DNA of 64,000 nt from an uncultured Gillisia sp. (lineage in GTDB: Bacteria; Bacteroidota; Bacteroidia; Flavobacteriales; Flavobacteriaceae): NCBI GenBank assembly GCA_963972215.1, contig CAXATE010000006.1, forward strand, positions 54,476 through 118,475. Direction: 5' to 3'. This document shows positions 1 to 55,114 of this stretch, in pieces (the stretch's first letter is position 1; each line of letters begins with the position of its first letter). The notes under the pieces are model-generated. The model was not told the DNA's origin, made no database searches, and saw only the letters and a list, made by a program, of their open reading frames with translations. Position numbers and translations under genes: made by a program.

Positions 1-333
1 GAGAAAAATGACCAGAATAAAACTCGCTTGATCGGAAATAGTTCAGATTTAAATGATTTAAACACAATTCTCGCTTTAGACCACCACGAGGCTTTAGTTG
101 CTTTTGACGAAAAAGGATATTCTCTTGAAAGAGCAAAAGAATTAACTGGAGTTCAAGATGTAGTATTTCGTGATTTTATTGCAAATGCTCACAATTATTT
201 AGAAAAAGCTGACAGGATGATTTTAAAAGTTAAAGAGATATATCCTGATTTAGAAGTAGATTTAAGAAACATCAAACTTCTTTCTAATAAAATAAGTAGT
301 ACTGCTAAAGAAATGAATGACTATGAAGGATAA
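1..333 (+). CDS. C-terminal end of a hypothetical protein, truncated by the left edge; possibly the tail of a ParB-like-domain protein
   Basis: Frame is open from base 1 (EKNDQNKTRL...), so the TTG at 28 is not the true start. The stop overlaps the next ATG. The ParB-like idea is only recollection of similar helical tails. Confidence 0.55.
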   Translation, partial: EKNDQNKTRLIGNSSDLNDLNTILALDHHEALVAFDEKGYSLERAKELTGVQDVVFRDFIANAHNYLEKADRMILKVKEIYPDLEVDLRNIKLLSNKISSTAKEMNDYEG

Positions 334-1291
334 AATTAATAATTTCTTTCGTCATTTTACCTTGACATTATCAGAGAAATATCCTTTTGATTCCAAAAAG
401 TATTTGTATGCTGACTATTTTGAATTGGTTTCTCTTTTTAACTCTGGCAGTCTTATCACAGTTGGAGATATGCTTGACCGATTAAACGATGAAGGTATTT
501 TAGACCAAACTAAAGAAGTCTCTGACCAAGCACAGCAGAATGACGATGAAGAATTTTTTGTTCGAAGTATTTTTGAAATTCTCAACCAACGTCAAGAATT
601 ATTTGGTTATGATTATCCTTTCGAATACTCAAAAGAATCTATTACAATAATAGCAGAATTAAACCAAAAACAAAAAACGTATATCTTTTTATTGTTATCT
701 TCTAATTTAAACCTATTCCCTGATTTTCAATCTAATTTAACTAATGAATTTGAACTGTTATCACTCGAAGCTTTAAAAAATTATTTACCACCATTTGCTA
801 TAACTACCTCATTTGGGAAAAACACAGATTTCAAAGGATATACCTATGACAAAATACAGCAACTTGCGAAATTAATGAATTTAGAGCCAGACGAATTTTA
901 TCTAAATACTATATCAAAAAAAGGTACACAAGACTTGGGTTTAGATATAGCTGGATGGATACCATTTATTGATAATGTTGGAAATTATTTTTCTATTTTC
1001 GGTCAATGCGCTTGCGGAAAGAATTGGACAAGTAAGTTAAACGAAACAAGACGTTACAATAATTTTTTAAAAGTCTATCATTCAAATATAAAACATTCAA
1101 TATTCATACCTTATGCTTTAATTAATAGTAACAACAATTCATTTTTTGAACATCACGAATTTGGAACAGATATTCTTGTCTTCGAACGAAAAAGAGTTCT
1201 ATCATTGATACAGAATGAAGAAGTTTTCAAGAATTTTGAGTCTGCTTTATTAGTAGATAGTTGTTTAGGATTTGTCGAAAACATTGTTTAA
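317..1291 (+). CDS. Hypothetical protein with divergent Mrr/PD-(D/E)xK restriction-endonuclease-like motif
   Basis: 324-aa ORF (ATG 317 or 323). Motifs FE..S..AL, QDLGLDIAGW and FGQCACGxxWxxK resemble the Mrr-type DxGxD...(Q/E)xK core. Confidence 0.5.
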   Translation: MTMKDKINNFFRHFTLTLSEKYPFDSKKYLYADYFELVSLFNSGSLITVGDMLDRLNDEGILDQTKEVSDQAQQNDDEEFFVRSIFEILNQRQELFGYDYPFEYSKESITIIAELNQKQKTYIFLLLSSNLNLFPDFQSNLTNEFELLSLEALKNYLPPFAITTSFGKNTDFKGYTYDKIQQLAKLMNLEPDEFYLNTISKKGTQDLGLDIAGWIPFIDNVGNYFSIFGQCACGKNWTSKLNETRRYNNFLKVYHSNIKHSIFIPYALINSNNNSFFEHHEFGTDILVFERKRVLSLIQNEEVFKNFESALLVDSCLGFVENIV

Positions 1292-1732
1292 AAATAGTAA
1301 TGAAAATTGCCAACGCTAAAAGCCGTAGACATTTGCAATTCGCTACAGCCACCAAAAATTGCAAAAGAGTATTTATCGCTAACGCACATTGTATGACCCG
1401 AATCAAGAGTCGTTCATTACTAACTGGAAAATGATTCATAATAATAGTATAATAAACTTTAATTCTCAAAATGAGAGTCTAGAATTTTCAGGTAACCAAG
1501 TATCAAAAACTACCAAGAAAACGAATCGATTACGATTGGGCACTCAAATTTAATTACCTAAAAAATTAGCTTGGTTTCCTTCTATAGAATATCTCAACTG
1601 GCACAATAAGGAAGTTTATTTACTTTAAATTTTATTATAAAACTATTTTAACCTCGCCTAGAGAATTTTTAGTTACAACTTATTCAATACCTACTCACCT
1701 TCTTAAGGTGGTAATATCTAAGCATTTTTTTT

Positions 1733-1781
1733 AAACAAAAAACCCGCAACTTTCGTTGCGGGTTTTCGTTTGCGGAGAATG
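1733..1781. repeat. 49-bp direct repeat, copy 1 (tRNA-Ser 3' tip plus terminator; att-like)
   Basis: 48/49 identical to 2068-2116; single mismatch g1768 vs c2103. Confidence 0.9.
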
Positions 1782-1798
1782 TGGATTACAAAAAAATG

Positions 1799-1905
1799 TG
1801 ATCCCGTTAGGGGGAACCTGGGCAAAGAAAAACCCGCGCCACGCTAGAAAAAAGCGTGCCTATGTTTTTTGTTTTCCAAAAACGCCTTCAAGCGAAAAGC
1901 TTGGG
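1799..1905. repeat. ~105-bp structured repeat unit A
   Basis: About 90% identical to 1953-2056; right arm of its last hairpin is truncated. Confidence 0.9.
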
Positions 1906-1952
1906 AATTTTAAATACACTTATGTTAGAGAGTCAAATAGGATTAACTGCGT

Positions 1953-2056
1953 TGATCCCGGAAGGGGGATCCTGGGCAAAGAAAAACCCGCGCCACGCCA
2001 AAAAGCGTGGCTTTGTTTTTTGTTTTCCAAAAACGCCTTCAAGCGAAAAGCTTGGG
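1953..2056. repeat. ~105-bp structured repeat unit B
   Basis: Hairpins GATCCC/GGGATC and CCACGC/GCGTGG, plus a long stem (ttttttgttttc...gaaaacaaaaaa) running to 2077. Confidence 0.9.
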
Positions 2057-2071
2057 CGTTTTTTTGAAAAC

Positions 2072-2101
2072 AAAAAACCCGCAACTTTCGTTGCGGGTTT
2101 T
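2072..2101 (-). terminator. Intrinsic terminator of tRNA-Ser
   Basis: aaaaaacccgcaac-tttc-gttgcgggtttt hairpin with a U-tract on the minus strand, directly after the tRNA. Confidence 0.8.
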
Positions 2102-2107
2102 CCTTTG

Positions 2108-2192
2108 CGGAGAATGAGGGATTCGAACCCCCGGAGGTGTAACCCTCAACAGTTTTCAAGACTGCCGCATTCGACCACTCTGCCAATTCTCC
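2108..2192 (-). tRNA. tRNA-Ser(TGA)
   Basis: Reverse complement GGAGAATTGGCAGAGTGGTCGAATGCGGCAGTCTTGAAAACTGTTGAGGGTTACACCTCCGGGGGTTCGAATCCCTCATTCTCCG: acceptor GGAGAAT/ATTCTCC, long variable arm, TTCGA T-loop; CCA not encoded. Confidence 0.97.
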
Positions 2193-2205
2193 AATTGTGG
2201 ATACC

Positions 2206-2260
2206 TTTTCAAGATTCCGCTTCCGATAGCTATCGGAACGGTCACTCTGCCAATTCTCCA
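2206..2260 (-). pseudogene. Orphan 5' half of tRNA-Ser interrupted by an 18-bp perfect palindrome
   Basis: 2243-2260 is identical to 2176-2193; ttttcaag (anticodon loop) recurs at 2206; ttccgatagctatcggaa at 2221-2238. Confidence 0.8.
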
Positions 2261-2294
2261 GTGTGTCTCATCAGGTATTCTCTGATTGCGGGTG

Positions 2295-2302
2295 CAAATA
2301 TA
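2295..2302 (-). promoter_or_regulatory. Bacteroidota -7 promoter box for tRNA-Ser
   Basis: caaatata is TATATTTG on the minus strand (TAnnTTTG consensus). Confidence 0.7.
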
Positions 2303-2519
2303 ACAAGCTTTTTTTGAAAAATTAAAAAATCTGGTAGCTTTTTTTTATTTTTTTTTATTTCAATAATCTTAAGCCCTCGAACAAGCTAAAGCTCAATCCA
2401 ATACTGCTCTTAACCAAAAACAGCAACATCTTAGAATTAAGATTTATTTATAGCTCCTAATCTCAGAAATCCTAGTAAATCTCTTATATTGCCGAACTTA
2501 TTAAAATTAGTATACCCTT

Positions 2520-3539
2520 ATGAAAAAAGTACTTTTTAGTGCCTTAACTGTAGTTCTAGTTGGCTGCGGCGCTCATCAATCTAAACAGATTGAAGATATT
2601 AATCCAATGGAATTTGCTGAAAGCATTACTTCCAAAGAATTAAAAGAACATTTATACATTTTTGCCAGTGACGAATTTCAAGGTCGTGAGACAGGGGAAC
2701 CAGGTCAAAAAATGGCAGCCGAATACCTTAAAAAAGAATATAAAGCCTTGAATATTGTATCTCCTATTGGGGGAGACGATTATTACCAAGAAGTTCCTGC
2801 CGCTATGTTTAGAGGTGGCGTTAAAGATTCTGAAAACGTGTTAGCCTACATTCCAGGTTCTGAAAAACCAAATGAAATTTTAGTGATCTCTTCTCATTAT
2901 GATCACGTTGGGATGGATGATGAAGGAAATATCTTTAATGGAGCCGATGATGATGGCTCTGGAACCGTTGCCGTTTTAGAGATCGCTGAAGCATTTGCAA
3001 AAGCAAGAAAAGAAGGATTCACTCCAAAACGCTCTATCTTATTTCTAAATGTAACAGGAGAAGAAAAAGGATTGATAGGATCTAAATTCTATACAGATAA
3101 CCCTGTTTTTGCTTTAGCTCAAACGGTAGCCGATCTTAACATAGATATGATTGGAAGAACAGATGCTGCTCATAAGAAAAATGACAACTACGTTTATCTT
3201 ATTGGAAGTGATAAATTAAGTTCAGAACTTCATAAATTAAGTGAAGAGGTAAATGCCAAATACACAAAACTAGATCTGGATTATACCTATAATGATGAGA
3301 ATGATCCAAATAGATTCTACTATAGAAGTGATCATTATAACTTCGCAAAGAACAATATCCCAATTATCTTTTATTTTAATGGTGTTCACGCCGATTATCA
3401 TAAAATATCAGATACTCCAGATAAAATTAGATATGACCTGTTAGAAAAACGTGCGCGTTTAGTATTCTTAACCGCATGGGAGATCGCAAATAGAGACGAA
3501 CGTCCGTTTGTTGATAAACCCGCTCCTGCATCTAACTAA
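2520..3539 (+). CDS. M28 family metallopeptidase, lipoprotein
   Basis: LVGC lipobox; SSHYDH, GADDDGSG, GEEKGL, NIDMIG and SDHY Zn motifs. Confidence 0.92.
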   Translation: MKKVLFSALTVVLVGCGAHQSKQIEDINPMEFAESITSKELKEHLYIFASDEFQGRETGEPGQKMAAEYLKKEYKALNIVSPIGGDDYYQEVPAAMFRGGVKDSENVLAYIPGSEKPNEILVISSHYDHVGMDDEGNIFNGADDDGSGTVAVLEIAEAFAKARKEGFTPKRSILFLNVTGEEKGLIGSKFYTDNPVFALAQTVADLNIDMIGRTDAAHKKNDNYVYLIGSDKLSSELHKLSEEVNAKYTKLDLDYTYNDENDPNRFYYRSDHYNFAKNNIPIIFYFNGVHADYHKISDTPDKIRYDLLEKRARLVFLTAWEIANRDERPFVDKPAPASN

Positions 3540-3556
3540 AGCTGGAACTAGAATAT

Positions 3557-3595
3557 AAAAAAATCCTGAAAGTATTTCTTTCAGGATTTTTTTTT
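3557..3595 (+). terminator. Intrinsic terminator after the M28 gene
   Basis: aaaaaaatcctgaaag-tattt-ctttcaggattttttt. Confidence 0.8.
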
Positions 3596-3667
3596 GCGTT
3601 GATATTAAAAGAGACTTCGCTGGTTTACTATTCAATAAAACTGTAGTTTAATCCAAGGATGTTTTAA

Positions 3668-3760
3668 AGTCCTCACCTTCGGGGAGGATTTAGGAGGGGA
3701 TGAGAAAGTGATTTATTTTAATTCATCCCAACCCCAAGCCTTCCCCAAGGGAAGGGAGCA
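3668..3760. repeat. Inverted pair of GC-rich REP-like palindromes
   Basis: gtcctcaccttcggggaggatttaggagggg and, in opposite orientation, cccaaccccaagccttccccaagggaagggagc, in an AT-rich convergent gap. Confidence 0.6.
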
Positions 3761-3985
3761 TAATATTCCAATTATTAATAATTCACTAAACCTAAACCCT
3801 TCACAATTTATTATATTAAAAACCTTGTAAACAAATGTAATTTCTTGACTTAAATTTTAATCCTGCTACATTTAGACAGGAACTCAATAAAGCACGTTAT
3901 CATATTAGGTTTGATATTTTTTTTATTTAGGACTTAGTTTACTTCGAGCATATTAAATTTCTTAATTATAAAATTGAATTCAACC

Positions 3986-4075
3986 GGCTCAGTCTGACAT
4001 TGTAATGCGGTCACCCTGAGCACGTCGAAGGGCTGACAAACTGTACACAATGTCCCCTCGAGCGGATTCGAGAGG
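3986..4075. repeat. Cluster of three REP-like units (gtcaccctgagc...gtcgaaggg type)
   Basis: gctcagtctgac; gtcaccctgagcacgtcgaaggg; gtcccctcgagcggattcgagagg with ctcga/tcgag arms. Confidence 0.6.
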
Positions 4076-4107
4076 TTATTAATTACTATAAGAACAAGAA
4101 TAAACAC

Positions 4108-5484
4108 CTACTTCATCGTATTCAAGATCAAATCTATATCCGCCTCCGTAGTATCGGGATTGATAAAGCAGAATCTGGAAATGGTTTCATATTCCCCATT
4201 ATTCTTCCACTTTGTAGGTGTAACCAAGGCAATTCCTTCTCTGTGGTTCTTATAGGTCCAATCCCTGTATTGATCTGGAGTCCATCCTTTACGTCTGTAT
4301 AACACCACCGAAAGGCTTGCAGGCCGAACCAGCTCTAAGTAATCCCTTTCCTTAATTTTATCTGCTGCTATCTGAGCCAACTCAATTCCGCGTTCTATAG
4401 AATCTCGATATTTCTCTGTTCCATGCATCGCTAAAGAAAACCATAAAGGCATTCCGCGTAATCTTCTGGTTAACTGAATTTGATAATCTGCCGGATTAAA
4501 TCCGTGCGCTCCTTCATCTTTAAAGATTTCGAGATAAGAGCCTTTTTGAGAGTGGGCATTCTTTGCCAATTCTAGATCTTTATAGATCACCGCTCCACAA
4601 TCATAAGGTGAAAAAAGCCATTTATGAGGATCTATAGTAATACTATCTGCTTTTTCTATTCCATTAAACAAGTGTCTTACAGAAGGTGCAGCAAGTGCTC
4701 CTCCTCCATATGCACAATCTACATGGAACCAGGTTTGTTCTTTTTCACAAACTTCTGCAATGCTATCTAACTCATCTATGATCCCTGCATTTGTTGTACC
4801 ACCGGTAGCTACAACCGCAAAAAGACGTTCCCTGTCAAAAGGTTTAAGCGTATCTATGGCTAATTGCAAAGATTTTCCTGTAAGATATTCTTCATCATCA
4901 TCAATTAAAATGAGATCGGCATCCATCACTTTTGCCATGGCCTGAATGGAACTATGTGCAGAAATAGAGGTGAGCAACAGACCTTTAAACTCTGAGTTCT
5001 TGGGATTCCTAGTACGCCAATCTTCTCTTGCCGCCACTAAGGCTGATAAATTTGCCGCAGTTCCTCCACTTGTAAAAACCCCAAAAGCATCTTTTGATAA
5101 TCCGGTTAAAGAGACCAACCATTTCATGGCTTGATTCTCACAAAAGATCCCTCCTGCTCCTTCCATCCAATAAGCACCGTGAATACTTGAGGCAGAGGTA
5201 ACCAGATCGAACATGATCGCTGCCCTTGTTGGTGCTGCTGGAACAAAGGCCAAATGCCTTGGATGATCTATTGGCACCGTTGCCTTTACCAGTATATCTT
5301 TAAAAAGCTTAAAAGCAGTTTCCCCTCCAATCCCTTTTGGAGTGATGGTTTCCCCCACCAACGCAAACAATTCTTCTTCTTTTTTTGGGGCACCCAGTTC
5401 AGGGGTTACATTTGATATTCGGTCTATTGTATATTTCATAACATCCAGCGTCATTTCCACCAGATCCATATCTATACTGTGCAT
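4108..5484 (-). CDS. PLP-dependent group II amino-acid decarboxylase
   Basis: FTSGGTAAN, GGTTNAG, WFHVDCAYGG and DPHKW (PLP lysine). ATG at 5484 preferred over TTG at 5499. Confidence 0.9.
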   Translation of the reverse strand: MHSIDMDLVEMTLDVMKYTIDRISNVTPELGAPKKEEELFALVGETITPKGIGGETAFKLFKDILVKATVPIDHPRHLAFVPAAPTRAAIMFDLVTSASSIHGAYWMEGAGGIFCENQAMKWLVSLTGLSKDAFGVFTSGGTAANLSALVAAREDWRTRNPKNSEFKGLLLTSISAHSSIQAMAKVMDADLILIDDDEEYLTGKSLQLAIDTLKPFDRERLFAVVATGGTTNAGIIDELDSIAEVCEKEQTWFHVDCAYGGGALAAPSVRHLFNGIEKADSITIDPHKWLFSPYDCGAVIYKDLELAKNAHSQKGSYLEIFKDEGAHGFNPADYQIQLTRRLRGMPLWFSLAMHGTEKYRDSIERGIELAQIAADKIKERDYLELVRPASLSVVLYRRKGWTPDQYRDWTYKNHREGIALVTPTKWKNNGEYETISRFCFINPDTTEADIDLILNTMK

Positions 5485-54933: not shown

Positions 54934-54954
54934 TTTAGAGGCGATAGAGCGACT
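54934..54954. repeat. Degenerate copy of the tRNA-Thr 3' end (att-like scar)
   Basis: tttagaggcgatagagcgact vs tttagagccgatagagggact (55036-55056), 19/21 identical. Confidence 0.7.
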
Positions 54955-55040
54955 TCCTTCGATTCCGAGCAGAACAGGCTTCCAGGTCCAAACGCAATAA
55001 AACTAAAAAAGCTCCTCCTAAAGGAGAAGCTTTTTTTTAG

Positions 55041-55114
55041 AGCCGATAGAGGGACTCGAACCCACGACCTGCTGATTACAAATCAGCTGCTCTAGCCAGC
55101 TGAGCTACATCGGC
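55041..55114 (-). tRNA. tRNA-Thr(TGT)
   Basis: Reverse complement GCCGATGTAGCTCAGCTGGCTAGAGCAGCTGATTTGTAATCAGCAGGTCGTGGGTTCGAGTCCCTCTATCGGCT; terminator-like hairpin follows. Confidence 0.97.

Follow-up and report, generated by a model that had tools for sequence, protein, structure and literature searches.

Hairpin-marked repeats behind tRNA genes of Bacteroidota: a possible tRNA-tail module at tRNA-Ser(TGA) of a Gillisia genome

The repeat stack behind tRNA-Ser(TGA)

The 64,000-nucleotide stretch of an uncultured Gillisia sp. analysed here (the window) carries an intact gene for tRNA-Ser(TGA), with a stack of repeats on its 3' side (Table 1). All of the repeats described in a first-pass annotation of this DNA are present at the locus. 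The direct repeat, which had been given as 49 bp with one mismatch, retains that stretch as its core, composed of the terminator hairpin and the final 13 nt of the tRNA (+ strand), and extends in full over 60 bp at 93% identity; the copies of the tRNA-Ser 3' end for which it had been called att-like are indeed contained in it. The 286 bp between the repeats consist of repeat units built from hairpins, together with spacers, and the open reading frames listed over this segment extend across the antisense tRNA too. The segment is non-coding and structured, as had been proposed.

Two units, A and B, of about 110 bp each, are 90–94% identical, in agreement with the earlier estimate of about 90%; a 3-nt indel separates the first 52 nt, where identity is 90%, from the last 63 nt, where it is 94%. 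Each unit contains three hairpins, also as described before, with the third of unit A truncated at its right side. In its own 3.18-Mb genome, BLAST of the unit, a check proposed at the outset, and a motif search place both units at the tRNA-Ser(TGA) locus and nowhere else.

Table 1 Features of the tRNA-Ser(TGA) locus (window coordinates; ^ marks a junction).
Feature	Position	Strand	Sequence or composition	Basis or remark
Intact tRNA-Ser(TGA)	2107-2192	minus		ARAGORN; Rfam tRNA model 58.8 bits
T-loop/tail boundary of tRNA-Ser(TGA)	2119-2123^2124	plus	GGATT^CGAACC	
Direct repeat	1725-1784 / 2060-2119			60 bp
Core of direct repeat	1733-1781 / 2068-2116			49 bp
tRNA terminator termW	2074-2101	minus	AAAACCCGCAAC-TTTC-GTTGCGGGTTTT	intrinsic; inverted repeat I14
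Unit B	1953-2062			
Hairpin 3, unit B	2027-2066		long stem, apex CAAGC-GAAAA-GCTTG (2040-2054)	sequence and MFE fold
Hairpin 2, unit B	1992-2011		GCCACGC-CAAAAA-GCGTGGC, then T run 2012-2027	
Inverted copy of tRNA trailer and terminator left arm	1974-1991		GGGCAAAGAAAAACCCGC	inverted repeat I11
Hairpin P1, unit B	1954-1971		GATCCC-GGAAGG-GGGATC	sequence and alignment of homologous units
Hairpin P0, unit B	1940-1958		GGATT^AACTGCGTTGATCC	distal boundary of module 1; unique in genome
Degenerate tail copy, start of module 2	1928-1944		GAGAGTCAAATAGGATT	
Unit A	1799-1911		P1 1800-1817; hairpin 2 ~1838-1860; hairpin 3 1885-1905 without right flank	direct repeats D1 and D3; own-genome BLAST, 90% identity to unit B
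P0 variant, unit A	1783-1804		GGATTAC-AAAAAAAT-GTGATCC	P0-like stem shape, A-rich loop
Module 3 remnant	1725-1787		A/T run; terminator copy 1739-1766; tail copy GCGGAGAATGTGGATT 1772-1787	distal copy of the 60-bp direct repeat (D2); tail by fuzzy search
Separate 67-bp head module	2193-2259	minus	upstream of tRNA-Ser(TGA)	direct repeat D5, 18/18 nt

We consider it quite possible, if somewhat short of probable, that the stack represents a non-coding 'tRNA-tail module', self-complementary and present as a short tandem array. In the sense of the tRNA, the module begins with a 17-nt 'tail', which repeats the tRNA sequence from T-loop position A58 through the 3' end, and continues with an intrinsic terminator, a long hairpin with the apex AAGC-N-GCTT, the terminator and trailer in mirror image, and finally a T-arm pseudo-copy in which the T-loop is swapped for the P0 hairpin, GGATCAAC-GCA-GTTAATCC. 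Counted this way, the stack behind tRNA-Ser amounts to two and a half module copies, that is, two units and the stub of a third. The earlier picture of a 286-bp mini-element nested in one att pair is not supported, the 60-bp repeat being the tail and terminator of module 1 and of the truncated module 3.

In module 1, termW directly follows the tail; it shows compensatory pairs and is also found 3' of tRNA-Ser(TGA) in other genera. The third hairpin of unit B is the symmetry centre of the module and the second is the mirror counterpart of the tRNA terminator, with A and T runs on either side of each. Inverted repeat I11, of 16 nt, is 94% complementary to positions 2093-2108 and provides the closing stem in the minimum free energy (MFE) fold, while the two arms of P1 in unit B both copy the T-arm, one in degenerate antisense form and the other in sense. 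The segment GTCAAATAGGATT of the degenerate tail copy at the start of module 2 is common to Gillisia sp. CAL575. The P0 variant of unit A also occurs in another genome (G006), and a similar variant, whose loop is T-rich when read in the tRNA sense, in an unrelated metagenome-assembled genome at tRNA-Ser(GGA).

On the other side of the tRNA, the head module consists of an exact copy of tRNA positions 1–17, the palindrome TTCCGATAGCTATCGGAA (2221-2238), which belongs to a family of 22 copies in this genome, and a degenerate copy of the anticodon arm; it is absent from relatives. In the same genome, tRNA-Val(TAC) and tRNA-Asn are directly followed by small genes of the GIY-YIG type, with open frames of 97 and 137 aa, and in both cases a tail pseudo-copy and a palindrome come next. 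Tail duplications are also seen behind tRNA-Thr and behind tRNA-Gly, where two copies stand 115 bp apart. Dnd-like defence genes are located left of the array, and on the contig we found no further tail copy or integrase that would delimit an island around them.

Modules with a P0 hairpin across Bacteroidota

The hallmark of the module is P0, a conserved 19-base hairpin that occurs in at least 119 genome stretches from five orders (Flavobacteriales, Chitinophagales, Sphingobacteriales, Bacteroidales and Cytophagales). About 90 of the stretches have a tRNA gene at a distance of 140–190 bp, always with its 3' end toward the motif, and the neighbouring tRNAs are of 11 types (Ser, Pro, Val, Arg, Gln, Ala, Lys, Tyr, Leu, His and Cys). 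Units often stand in arrays of 2–6, with periods of 85–187 bp, and many arrays include internal units without a terminator; cultured strains with an array include Muriicola jejuensis KCTC 22299 and Lutimonas halocynthiae CECT 8444; the presence of arrays of one to six units in many independent assemblies argues against an assembly artefact. At 17 or more of 77 loci, the 17 nt left of the junction agree with the tail of the local tRNA at 15 or more positions, and clean tail repeats are found in about a fifth of loci only. The distribution is patchy, with the exact motif in 3 of 401 genomes sampled across the phylum and the unit matched by BLAST in 8 of 33 genomes of the genus. Our search of the literature, for the sequence of the motif as well as for accounts of repeats of this kind, returned nothing relevant, and we found no description of the module there.

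The module is a discrete insertion with its boundary between T-loop positions G57 and A58, and the adjacent tRNA is intact. Within Gillisia, the site is empty in one genome (G014), where flank, native terminator and tRNA are present, and filled in another (G028), where an insert of 179 bp accompanies the same flank and terminator. The insert opens with AACTGCG and closes with a second GCGGAGAATGAGGGATT, and the repeat in G028 is exact over 17 bp. This insert has a terminator of its own, unlike the native one, and is mirror-symmetric around it. Two unrelated module bodies occupy one tRNA in one genus, with hairpins P0 and P1 alone in common. In several loci, among them that of G016, the terminator nearest the tRNA looks native, from which it follows that the boundary of the moving part is not fixed.

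Over 77 loci, the modules fold with a median MFE z-score of -5.0 and reach a mirror-alignment score of 23, compared with 8.6 in shuffled sequences. The whole-module MFE fold is a three-hairpin junction closed by pairing with the tRNA tail, and the apex motif AAGC-N1-5-GCTT is present in 40 of the 77 units against 0.7 expected by chance. P0 is kept in 12 of 15 sequence variants, an apparent invariance that is partly due to ascertainment, all family members having been found by the P0 pattern itself; a compensatory change, AAC/GTT to AGC/GCT, is seen in its inner stem, and its outer stem tracks the local T-stem. A T·G wobble in P0 was considered as an indicator of the active strand and dropped, since a variant with A·A at that position makes it a conserved mismatch.

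We found no gene linked to the motif. Among the 119 P0 loci, neither an ORF family nor a nuclease gene was found adjoining the units, and the recurrent small ORFs within 1.5 kb of the motif were spurious frames crossing the tRNA and unrelated housekeeping neighbours only. Longer segments bounded by the motif (L148, L149, L055, L089, L120, L136 and L151) contain ordinary or island genes. A search of 2.9 million viral contigs gave no P0 match, hence no phage copy or attP.

Insertion, duplication or function

We favour, with slightly less than even confidence, a non-autonomous insertion module aimed at the tRNA T-loop/tail and reliant on a trans-acting factor, a mechanism that we infer. The suggestion of a structured cassette mobilised in trans, made in the first-pass annotation, comes close to this tentative reading. 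Insertion would regenerate the target, so that further copies could enter beside the tRNA; alternatively, copies might multiply by unequal exchange between tail repeats, and either route would lead to arrays with decaying outer copies, which is what unit A, the degenerate tail of module 2 and the module 3 stub would fit. As the module has no gene, insertion would need a factor supplied in trans, which would probably recognise the P0 hairpin and/or the T-arm as folded DNA. The internal units that lack a terminator fit local duplication better than repeated insertion, and both the single locus in this genome and the restriction of clean tail repeats to roughly one in five loci count against a mobile module. 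A broader proposal, which we regard as doubtful, is that the P0 modules represent minimal selfish DNA of a new class, gene-less and about 110–180 bp long, that would home to the tRNA T-loop as folded single-stranded DNA and rebuild the tRNA with their own tail copy, served by a host or unlinked enzyme reading the tRNA-gene cloverleaf or P0; the head module and the mini GIY-YIG cassettes would then be sister lineages in one superfamily of tRNA-gene parasites.

The repeats could instead be a functional RNA or a cis-acting trailer, either a read-through extension of the tRNA or a small RNA with its own promoter, acting as multi-hairpin terminator or insulator, in processing or as a decoy, with P0 as a protein-binding site and the copies as simple duplications; we judge this unlikely. 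It would account for the compensatory changes in the terminator and in hairpin 2, where RNAalifold finds pair 65-85 as CG in 7 sequences and AU in 5, with 62-88 and 66-84 covarying, as well as for the junction closed by the tRNA tail and the A/T runs around hairpins 2 and 3. The interior hairpins also fold better on the tRNA-sense strand at 53 of 77 loci (p = 1e-4), a test confounded by G+T skew, and tRNA terminators, taken as a positive control, do so at 56 of 76. However, the sparse occurrence in phylum and genus and the empty sites in close relatives are unlike a conserved housekeeping element, and one 19-mer at 11 tRNA types requires movement between loci. A scan of window positions 1-5000 with Rfam 15 (E up to 10), which included self-cleaving ribozymes and Bacteroidota motifs, passed the tRNA alone, other matches staying far below threshold. 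It is less likely still that the units are a gene-less relic or satellite of mini GIY-YIG (Ssn-like) cassettes lodged at tRNA genes; in this scheme, folded tRNA-gene DNA would be cut by a nuclease whose gene now lies elsewhere, and the cassette would be copied during repair. The cassettes behind tRNA-Val(TAC) and tRNA-Asn do resemble the module in layout (tail, terminator, cargo, hairpin, tail), and the 5' head module has a palindrome of their type. But a GIY-YIG profile run against all ORFs of the 119 P0 loci found none between unit and tRNA and one nearby, on the far side of the tRNA (L084), and a P0-like motif was present at none of 30 GIY-YIG loci of relatives. The SRM consensus of Ssn nucleases, HGTCWYN(0-2)YYVSBRHN(0-5)WNVSBRGN(0-2)RNCYNB (PMC11893778), occurs 0 times in the window and 4 times in the whole genome, in no case at the units or at any of the four GIY-YIG loci.

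A passive origin would lie in replication errors. Behind a tRNA gene under heavy transcription, template switches at the short palindromes of T-arm and terminator would yield sense/inverted/sense duplications, with no dedicated element or function. The module can be described in just such terms, as the adjacent trailer mirrored and then a direct copy of T-arm and tail, with both turns at short palindromes (the hairpin-3 apex and P1), and the tRNA-Gly and tRNA-Thr duplications show that tails have been copied elsewhere in this genome; yet independent errors would not give one 19-nt P0 and a shared apex motif at 11 tRNA types in five orders, nor does the G028 terminator match the native one, and we hold this explanation to be quite improbable. 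Very improbable, in our assessment, is the earlier model of layered attL/attR scars left by tyrosine-integrase elements at tRNA-Ser and tRNA-Arg. Copies of the tRNA-Ser tail do flank the units, and within the genus integrase islands have a hot spot at tRNA-Ser(TGA), but the crossover point contradicts the model: for the islands it is GCGGAGAA(A/T)GAGG^, at a distance of four bases from the GGATT^ boundary of the units (islands of G017, L056 and L140 break at ...GAGG^, units at ...GAGGGATT^), and the islands displace an intact unit rather than create it. The integrases of L056 and L140 lie outside the units, as part of these islands, and no integrase or remnant was found within the repeat-bounded segment or beside units in the 119 loci; the absence of the motif from viral contigs likewise speaks against scars. 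The 26-kb insert of G017 carries genes for glycerol and mannan utilisation along with IS3 and ISL3, and no tyrosine integrase among its ORFs of at least 100 aa. As for two target tRNAs, the tRNA-like 3' end noted earlier on the units is real in part, as a T-arm-like copy, but what follows this copy is a tRNA-Ser tail and not a tRNA-Arg end, every unit end at the locus being a T-arm pseudo-copy joined to that tail (AATCC...). The likeness to tRNA-Arg is confined to unit A, whose end shares 20 of 27 aligned positions with the final 28 nt of tRNA-Arg(TCT). Unit A scores 12, marginally above the null 95th percentile (11), and unit B scores 9, inside the null range; the match of unit A rests on a GGTTC stretch that the homologous units of G006 and G017 lack.

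tRNA genes are classic landing pads of genomic islands, and partial copies of them are routinely taken for integrase scars. The module indicates that tRNA tails in Bacteroidota are duplicated by a second process as well, gene-less and marked by a hairpin, and island finders relying on tRNA fragments could misplace borders where it occurs. If mobile, it would rank with the smallest known elements that have a specific target, and would suggest an enzyme recognising folded tRNA-gene DNA; if an RNA element, it would be a new structured RNA linked to tRNA genes. Either way it offers a testable motif, GGATT^AACTGCGTTGATCC, at 140–190 bp behind a tRNA gene.

Relation to known repeat systems

Williams reportedly dealt in 2002 with partial tRNA genes left by integrative elements. 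Such attR-type direct repeats, and the tandem accretion of non-autonomous CIME-type elements, have been described (PMC9897764; PMC5704250). The module is similar in that a duplicated tRNA 3' segment flanks it, a functional tRNA is restored and non-autonomous copies stack in tandem at one tRNA. It differs in its size of only about 110–180 bp without integrase or remnant, in its G57^A58 boundary, which is not the crossover point of the islands at this tRNA, in the absence of its motif from viral contigs and in the use of one end motif at 11 tRNA types.

Correia/CREE, ERIC, BOX and RUP are MITE-like palindromic repeats of bacteria. The module resembles them in being small, non-coding, patchy in distribution and highly self-complementary (mirror score 23 versus 8.6), with a long stem-loop and terminator-like hairpins. 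Unlike them, it is not dispersed, its two copies here sharing one locus, and per genome it keeps to a single site that is always behind a tRNA gene; it also has no short target duplication of fixed length, and we know of no cognate IS transposase. With REP/BIME repeats and their RAYT enzymes it shares hairpins repeated in mirror pairs downstream of genes and a proposed enzyme acting in trans, but two copies stand here against hundreds, and the Y1 transposase domain (Y1_Tnp, PF01797) is absent from the P0-carrying G006, G016 and G028. The present genome has a sub-threshold Y1_Tnp fragment of 21.7 bits with stop codons, and across the genus the profile shows no correlation with P0.

Ssn single-strand nucleases have NTS/SRM hairpin repeats (Chenal et al. 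2025, PMC11893778). By analogy, the hairpin of the module with its oriented flank could serve as a nuclease site, and small GIY-YIG genes with flanking palindromes adjoin tRNA genes in this genome; in contrast to that system, P0 and P1 fall outside the SRM consensus and an ssn-like gene stands beside no P0 unit.

In integron cassette arrays, attC hairpins are recombined as folded single strands. Module units, unlike cassettes, are without ORFs, 3 nt instead of tens of nt separate their arms, and their target is a tRNA T-loop. They are nonetheless like integron arrays in being arranged one way round, in tandem and at one fixed site, with an imperfect end palindrome that includes an unpaired base. 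The ...TTAAC / GTTGA... of P0 is reminiscent of the inverse core and core of integron sites, RYYYAAC / GTTRRRY, and, as read from the sequence, GATTAAC...GTTGATC has one mismatch to each.

A gene-less tandem array at tRNA-Ser(TGA)

The repeats on the 3' side of tRNA-Ser(TGA) form a tandem array of discrete, highly structured modules that hold no gene and whose boundary is fixed in the T-loop of the tRNA. In tRNA sense, the tRNA body leads into ...GGTTCG|AATCCCTCATTCTCCGC, the final 17 nt of which, from A58 to the 3' end, we call the tail. Hairpin 3 of module 1 is long, with the plus-strand apex CAAGC-GAAAA-GCTTG, and unit A ends, in tRNA sense, in GGGATCAC-ATTTTTTT-GT. The 49-bp att-like repeat of the first-pass annotation exists, as the core (one mismatch) of a 60-bp repeat, but it is not a site pair enclosing a single element; the module anatomy identifies it as the tail and terminator of array members 1 and 3. 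No further copy of the unit or of its junction was found outside the tRNA-Ser locus in the genome of origin (3.18 Mb, 13 contigs).

Features of the array and of neighbouring or comparable loci (window positions unless a contig is named; contigs belong to the genome of origin, C6 carrying the window, except in the G017 row)
Feature	Position	Description
tRNA-Ser(TGA)	2107-2192	minus strand; repeats on its 3' side
Direct repeat, 60 bp	1725-1784 / 2060-2119	93% identical
Units A and B	1799-1911 and 1953-2062	halves 90% and 94% identical, 3-nt indel between halves
Module 1 (tRNA sense)	terminator 2074-2101, hairpin 3 2027-2066, hairpin 2 1992-2011	then GCGGGTTTTTCTTTGCCC, P1, GGGATCAACGCAGTT
Module 2	tail 1928-1944	degenerate tail AATCCTATTTGACTCTC, 22 unique nt, unit A from mid-hairpin 3 onward
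Module 3	tail 1772-1787, terminator 1739-1766	good tail copy AATCCACATTCTCCGC, repeat copy of module-1 terminator, unique flank beyond
tRNA-Ser 5'-end repeat, 18 bp	2176-2193 / 2243-2260	exact
Head module, 67 bp	2193-2259	minus strand, between promoter and tRNA-Ser
Dnd-like cluster	C6:48674-53687 (window -5801 to -788) and 1-1291	left of array
Split frame	about 1261-1629	short ORFs; stop about 1629
tRNA-Thr(TGT)	55040-55114
Tail pseudo-copy	about 54938-54954	AGTCGCTCTATCGCCTC (15/17), 85 nt 3' of tRNA-Thr
GIY-YIG open frames	C5:11758-12700, C2:1-760	97 and 137 aa; outside window
tRNA-Gly(TCC) locus	C8:26480-26830	outside window
YCCGAT-N2-6-ATCGGR palindromes	C1:102699-105446, C2:171, C5:12430, C6:56697	examples among 22 sites
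JM1 insert	G017:C2:425470-451915	26.4 kb

On its plus strand the unit reads GGGCAAAGAAAAACCCGC, hairpin 2, TTTTTTGTTTTCC, AAAAACGCC..., a series homologous to that of the tRNA-sense trailer (GCAAAGGAAAACCCGC, terminator, TTTTTTGTTTTC, AAAAAAACGCC...), so that the module is a single long imperfect palindrome centred on the hairpin-3 apex, and a second turn, at hairpin P1, leads to the T-arm and tail copied in sense orientation.

Presence and absence among Gillisia relatives

BLAST matched the unit in 8 of 33 congeners, among which five states were seen 3' of tRNA-Ser(TGA), the module being polymorphic for presence and absence among close relatives. The site is empty, with its native terminator, in G014 and G013; it holds a single type-1 unit in G016 (locus coinciding with Gillisia sp. 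CAL575), a single type-2 unit with an unrelated body in G028 (coinciding with G. mitskevichiae) and, truncated, in G008, and two units in G006, G011 and G027; in about a dozen genomes an integrase-type island lies right at the tRNA. G014 and G028 have flank and native terminator in common and form a clean empty-versus-filled comparison in which 17 bp of tRNA tail are duplicated: the additional 179 bp of G028 start with AACTGCGTTGATCCC, end with a second GCGGAGAATGAGGGATT and bring their own terminator, unlike the native one. This type-2 body is also mirror-symmetric, around its own terminator.

A terminal hairpin common to many tRNA types

The hairpin P0, GGATT|AACTGCGTTGATCC, forms the left edge of unit B; we used it as the family signature, scanning one genome per species with the pattern GGATTAACTGYGTTGRYCC. 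It occurred in at least 119 stretches, and the matches listed fall in Flavobacteriaceae, Weeksellaceae, Chitinophagales, Sphingobacteriales, Bacteroidales and Cytophagales, with a few additional, probable chance hits (in Proteobacteria or within genes). Among these matches, a tRNA gene lies 140-190 bp past P0 in at least about 90 stretches, invariably antisense to it (Ser with four anticodons, Pro, Val, Arg, Gln, Ala, Lys, Tyr, Leu, His and Cys), and arrays comprise 2-6 motifs with a period of 85-187 bp. One terminal hairpin is common to 11 tRNA types and five orders, with a sparse, patchy distribution: in an even sample of 401 Bacteroidota genomes, 3 had the exact motif, and P0 had no match among 2.9 million viral contigs.

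P0 is best described as a T-arm whose loop has been made into a helix, with an outer stem derived from the T-stem, then a single conserved mismatch, an inner stem of 3 bp and a loop of 3 nt. Its invariance is overstated because the family was gathered with the P0 pattern itself. Of 15 sequence variants, 12 retain the shape; the inner stem AAC/GTT becomes AGC/GCT at three loci, the outer stem tracks the local tRNA (GAGAT/ATCTC, CAGGAT/ATCCTG, GGAGGAT/ATCCTCC), and G006 and an unrelated MAG share the unit A variant (CAC, T-rich loop, GTG). Over 77 loci, MFE z-scores had a median of -5.0, the best mirror alignment scored 23 against 8.6 for shuffled sequence, and the apex motif AAGC-N1-5-GCTT was found in 40 units against 0.7 expected.

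Readings of the module and other features near tRNA genes

We tentatively read these observations together, with a confidence just short of even, as insertion at the T-loop and tail, local multiplication and dependence on a trans-acting factor. The module would insert, or would once have inserted, at this point and regenerate an intact tRNA, local copies arising through re-insertion or through unequal tail-to-tail exchange, and a putative trans-acting factor would read P0 and/or the folded T-arm; the exact mobile piece of DNA cannot be fixed because cyclic permutations within the 17-bp repeat are equivalent. At 17 or more of 77 loci, the 17 nt preceding the junction match the local tRNA tail (at least 15 of 17 positions). 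Passive duplication by template switching seems quite unlikely as the origin of the module. A trailer function at the RNA level is unlikely. Hairpin 2 contains compensatory pairs, and at 53 of 77 loci (p = 1e-4) the tRNA-sense strand gives the better fold of the interior hairpins, as it also tends to do for the tRNA terminators; G+T skew confounds this test. The genome of origin carries small GIY-YIG genes directly 3' of tRNA-Val(TAC) and tRNA-Asn, each with a tail pseudo-copy and the palindrome ATCCCGAT-N4-ATCGGGA, and the module could be a satellite or relic of such a cassette, a special case of insertion that we judge unlikely. No GIY-YIG gene lay between unit and tRNA in the 119 P0 matches listed, none of 30 GIY-YIG loci of relatives had a P0-like motif, and the SRM consensus of Ssn nucleases (PMC11893778) was absent from the window and from the four GIY-YIG loci of its genome. 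Y1/RAYT transposases were missing from the P0 carriers G006, G016 and G028, and the genome of origin has a broken fragment only.

At true integrase islands the tRNA-Ser(TGA) fragment stops at ...GAGG|; examples are the 26.4-kb insert of G017 and two stretches (L056, L140) in which Phage_integrase-domain proteins of 415 and 419 aa adjoin the break. Units break at GGATT|, four bases beyond; the islands displaced unit, terminator and 13-14 nt of tRNA as an intact block, and no integrase or other recurrent ORF was found inside or adjoining units among the P0 matches listed. On breakpoint, displacement and lack of an integrase we rejected the units as integrase scars, and the earlier proposal of scars from elements targeting two tRNAs is highly improbable. 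Its supposed tRNA-Arg resemblance was at best marginal against a null drawn from the best matches of shuffled queries among all 39 tRNAs (unit A scored 12, null 95th percentile 11; unit B scored 9, inside the null range). When the unit A end is aligned with the final 28 nt of tRNA-Arg(TCT), 20 of 27 positions agree, and the GGTTC stretch carrying this match is absent from the homologous G006 and G017 units. A tRNA-Ser tail comes after every unit, and copies of the T-arm of tRNA-Ser account better for the unit-end segment.

The module's tail repeats and their stacking recall att scars and CIME accretion; as a small palindromic non-coding repeat it resembles MITE, Correia and REP-BIME elements, and in its one-way arrays ending in imperfect hairpins, integron cassettes. 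It misses a defining feature of each of the first two groups, and its units, unlike integron cassettes, carry no ORF. No description of it was found in the literature, also when searched by motif letters. We file it with the known kinds of small non-autonomous repeat elements; that it is a new class of tRNA-gene parasite is possible but doubtful.

In Gillisia sp. JM1 (G017; stretches L034/L035), the insert separating a displaced unit from tRNA-Ser carries glycerol-utilisation genes, a mannan-type SusC/SusD locus and IS3 and ISL3 copies, is bounded by the 14-bp repeat TGCGGAGAATGAGG and showed no tyrosine integrase among ORFs of at least 100 aa.

The Dnd-like cluster encodes PAPS-reductase/DndC-like and SMC/AAA_23 DndD-like proteins and a helicase-like ATPase with a fused DndE domain. 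The two ORFs that follow had no Pfam match, and neither a second tRNA-Ser fragment nor an island-delimiting integrase was found on the contig. In the split frame, the 30 nt running up to the stop are similar to the end of the array-flanking gene in G006, of which it may, judged by eye, be a decayed orthologue.

The tRNA-Val(TAC) at the GIY-YIG cassette is present in three tandem copies. After each tRNA-linked GIY-YIG gene come a hairpin and a degenerate duplicate of tRNA tail and terminator, and after the tRNA-Val cassette a second, truncated gene copy. The head module, absent in G006, G016 and G028, repeats tRNA positions 1-17 exactly and continues with ACCG, the palindrome TTCCGATAGCTATCGGAA and a degenerate copy of the anticodon arm; the 18-bp repeat flanks it. 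Copies of the dispersed YCCGAT-N2-6-ATCGGR palindrome occur there and at both GIY-YIG cassettes; the family looks like a local counterpart of nuclease-associated hairpin repeats that misfits the published SRM consensus. The tRNA-Thr pseudo-copy comes after GGAAGCCTGTTCTGCTCGGAATCGAAGG and ahead of a terminator of its own, its junction differing in type from P0. Beyond tRNA-Gly(TCC) the 17-nt tail recurs exactly, twice, at a spacing of 115 bp, each junction reading CCTTC-AACTGCG-CTCAGG on the strand antisense to the tRNA and so having AACTGCG in common with P0.
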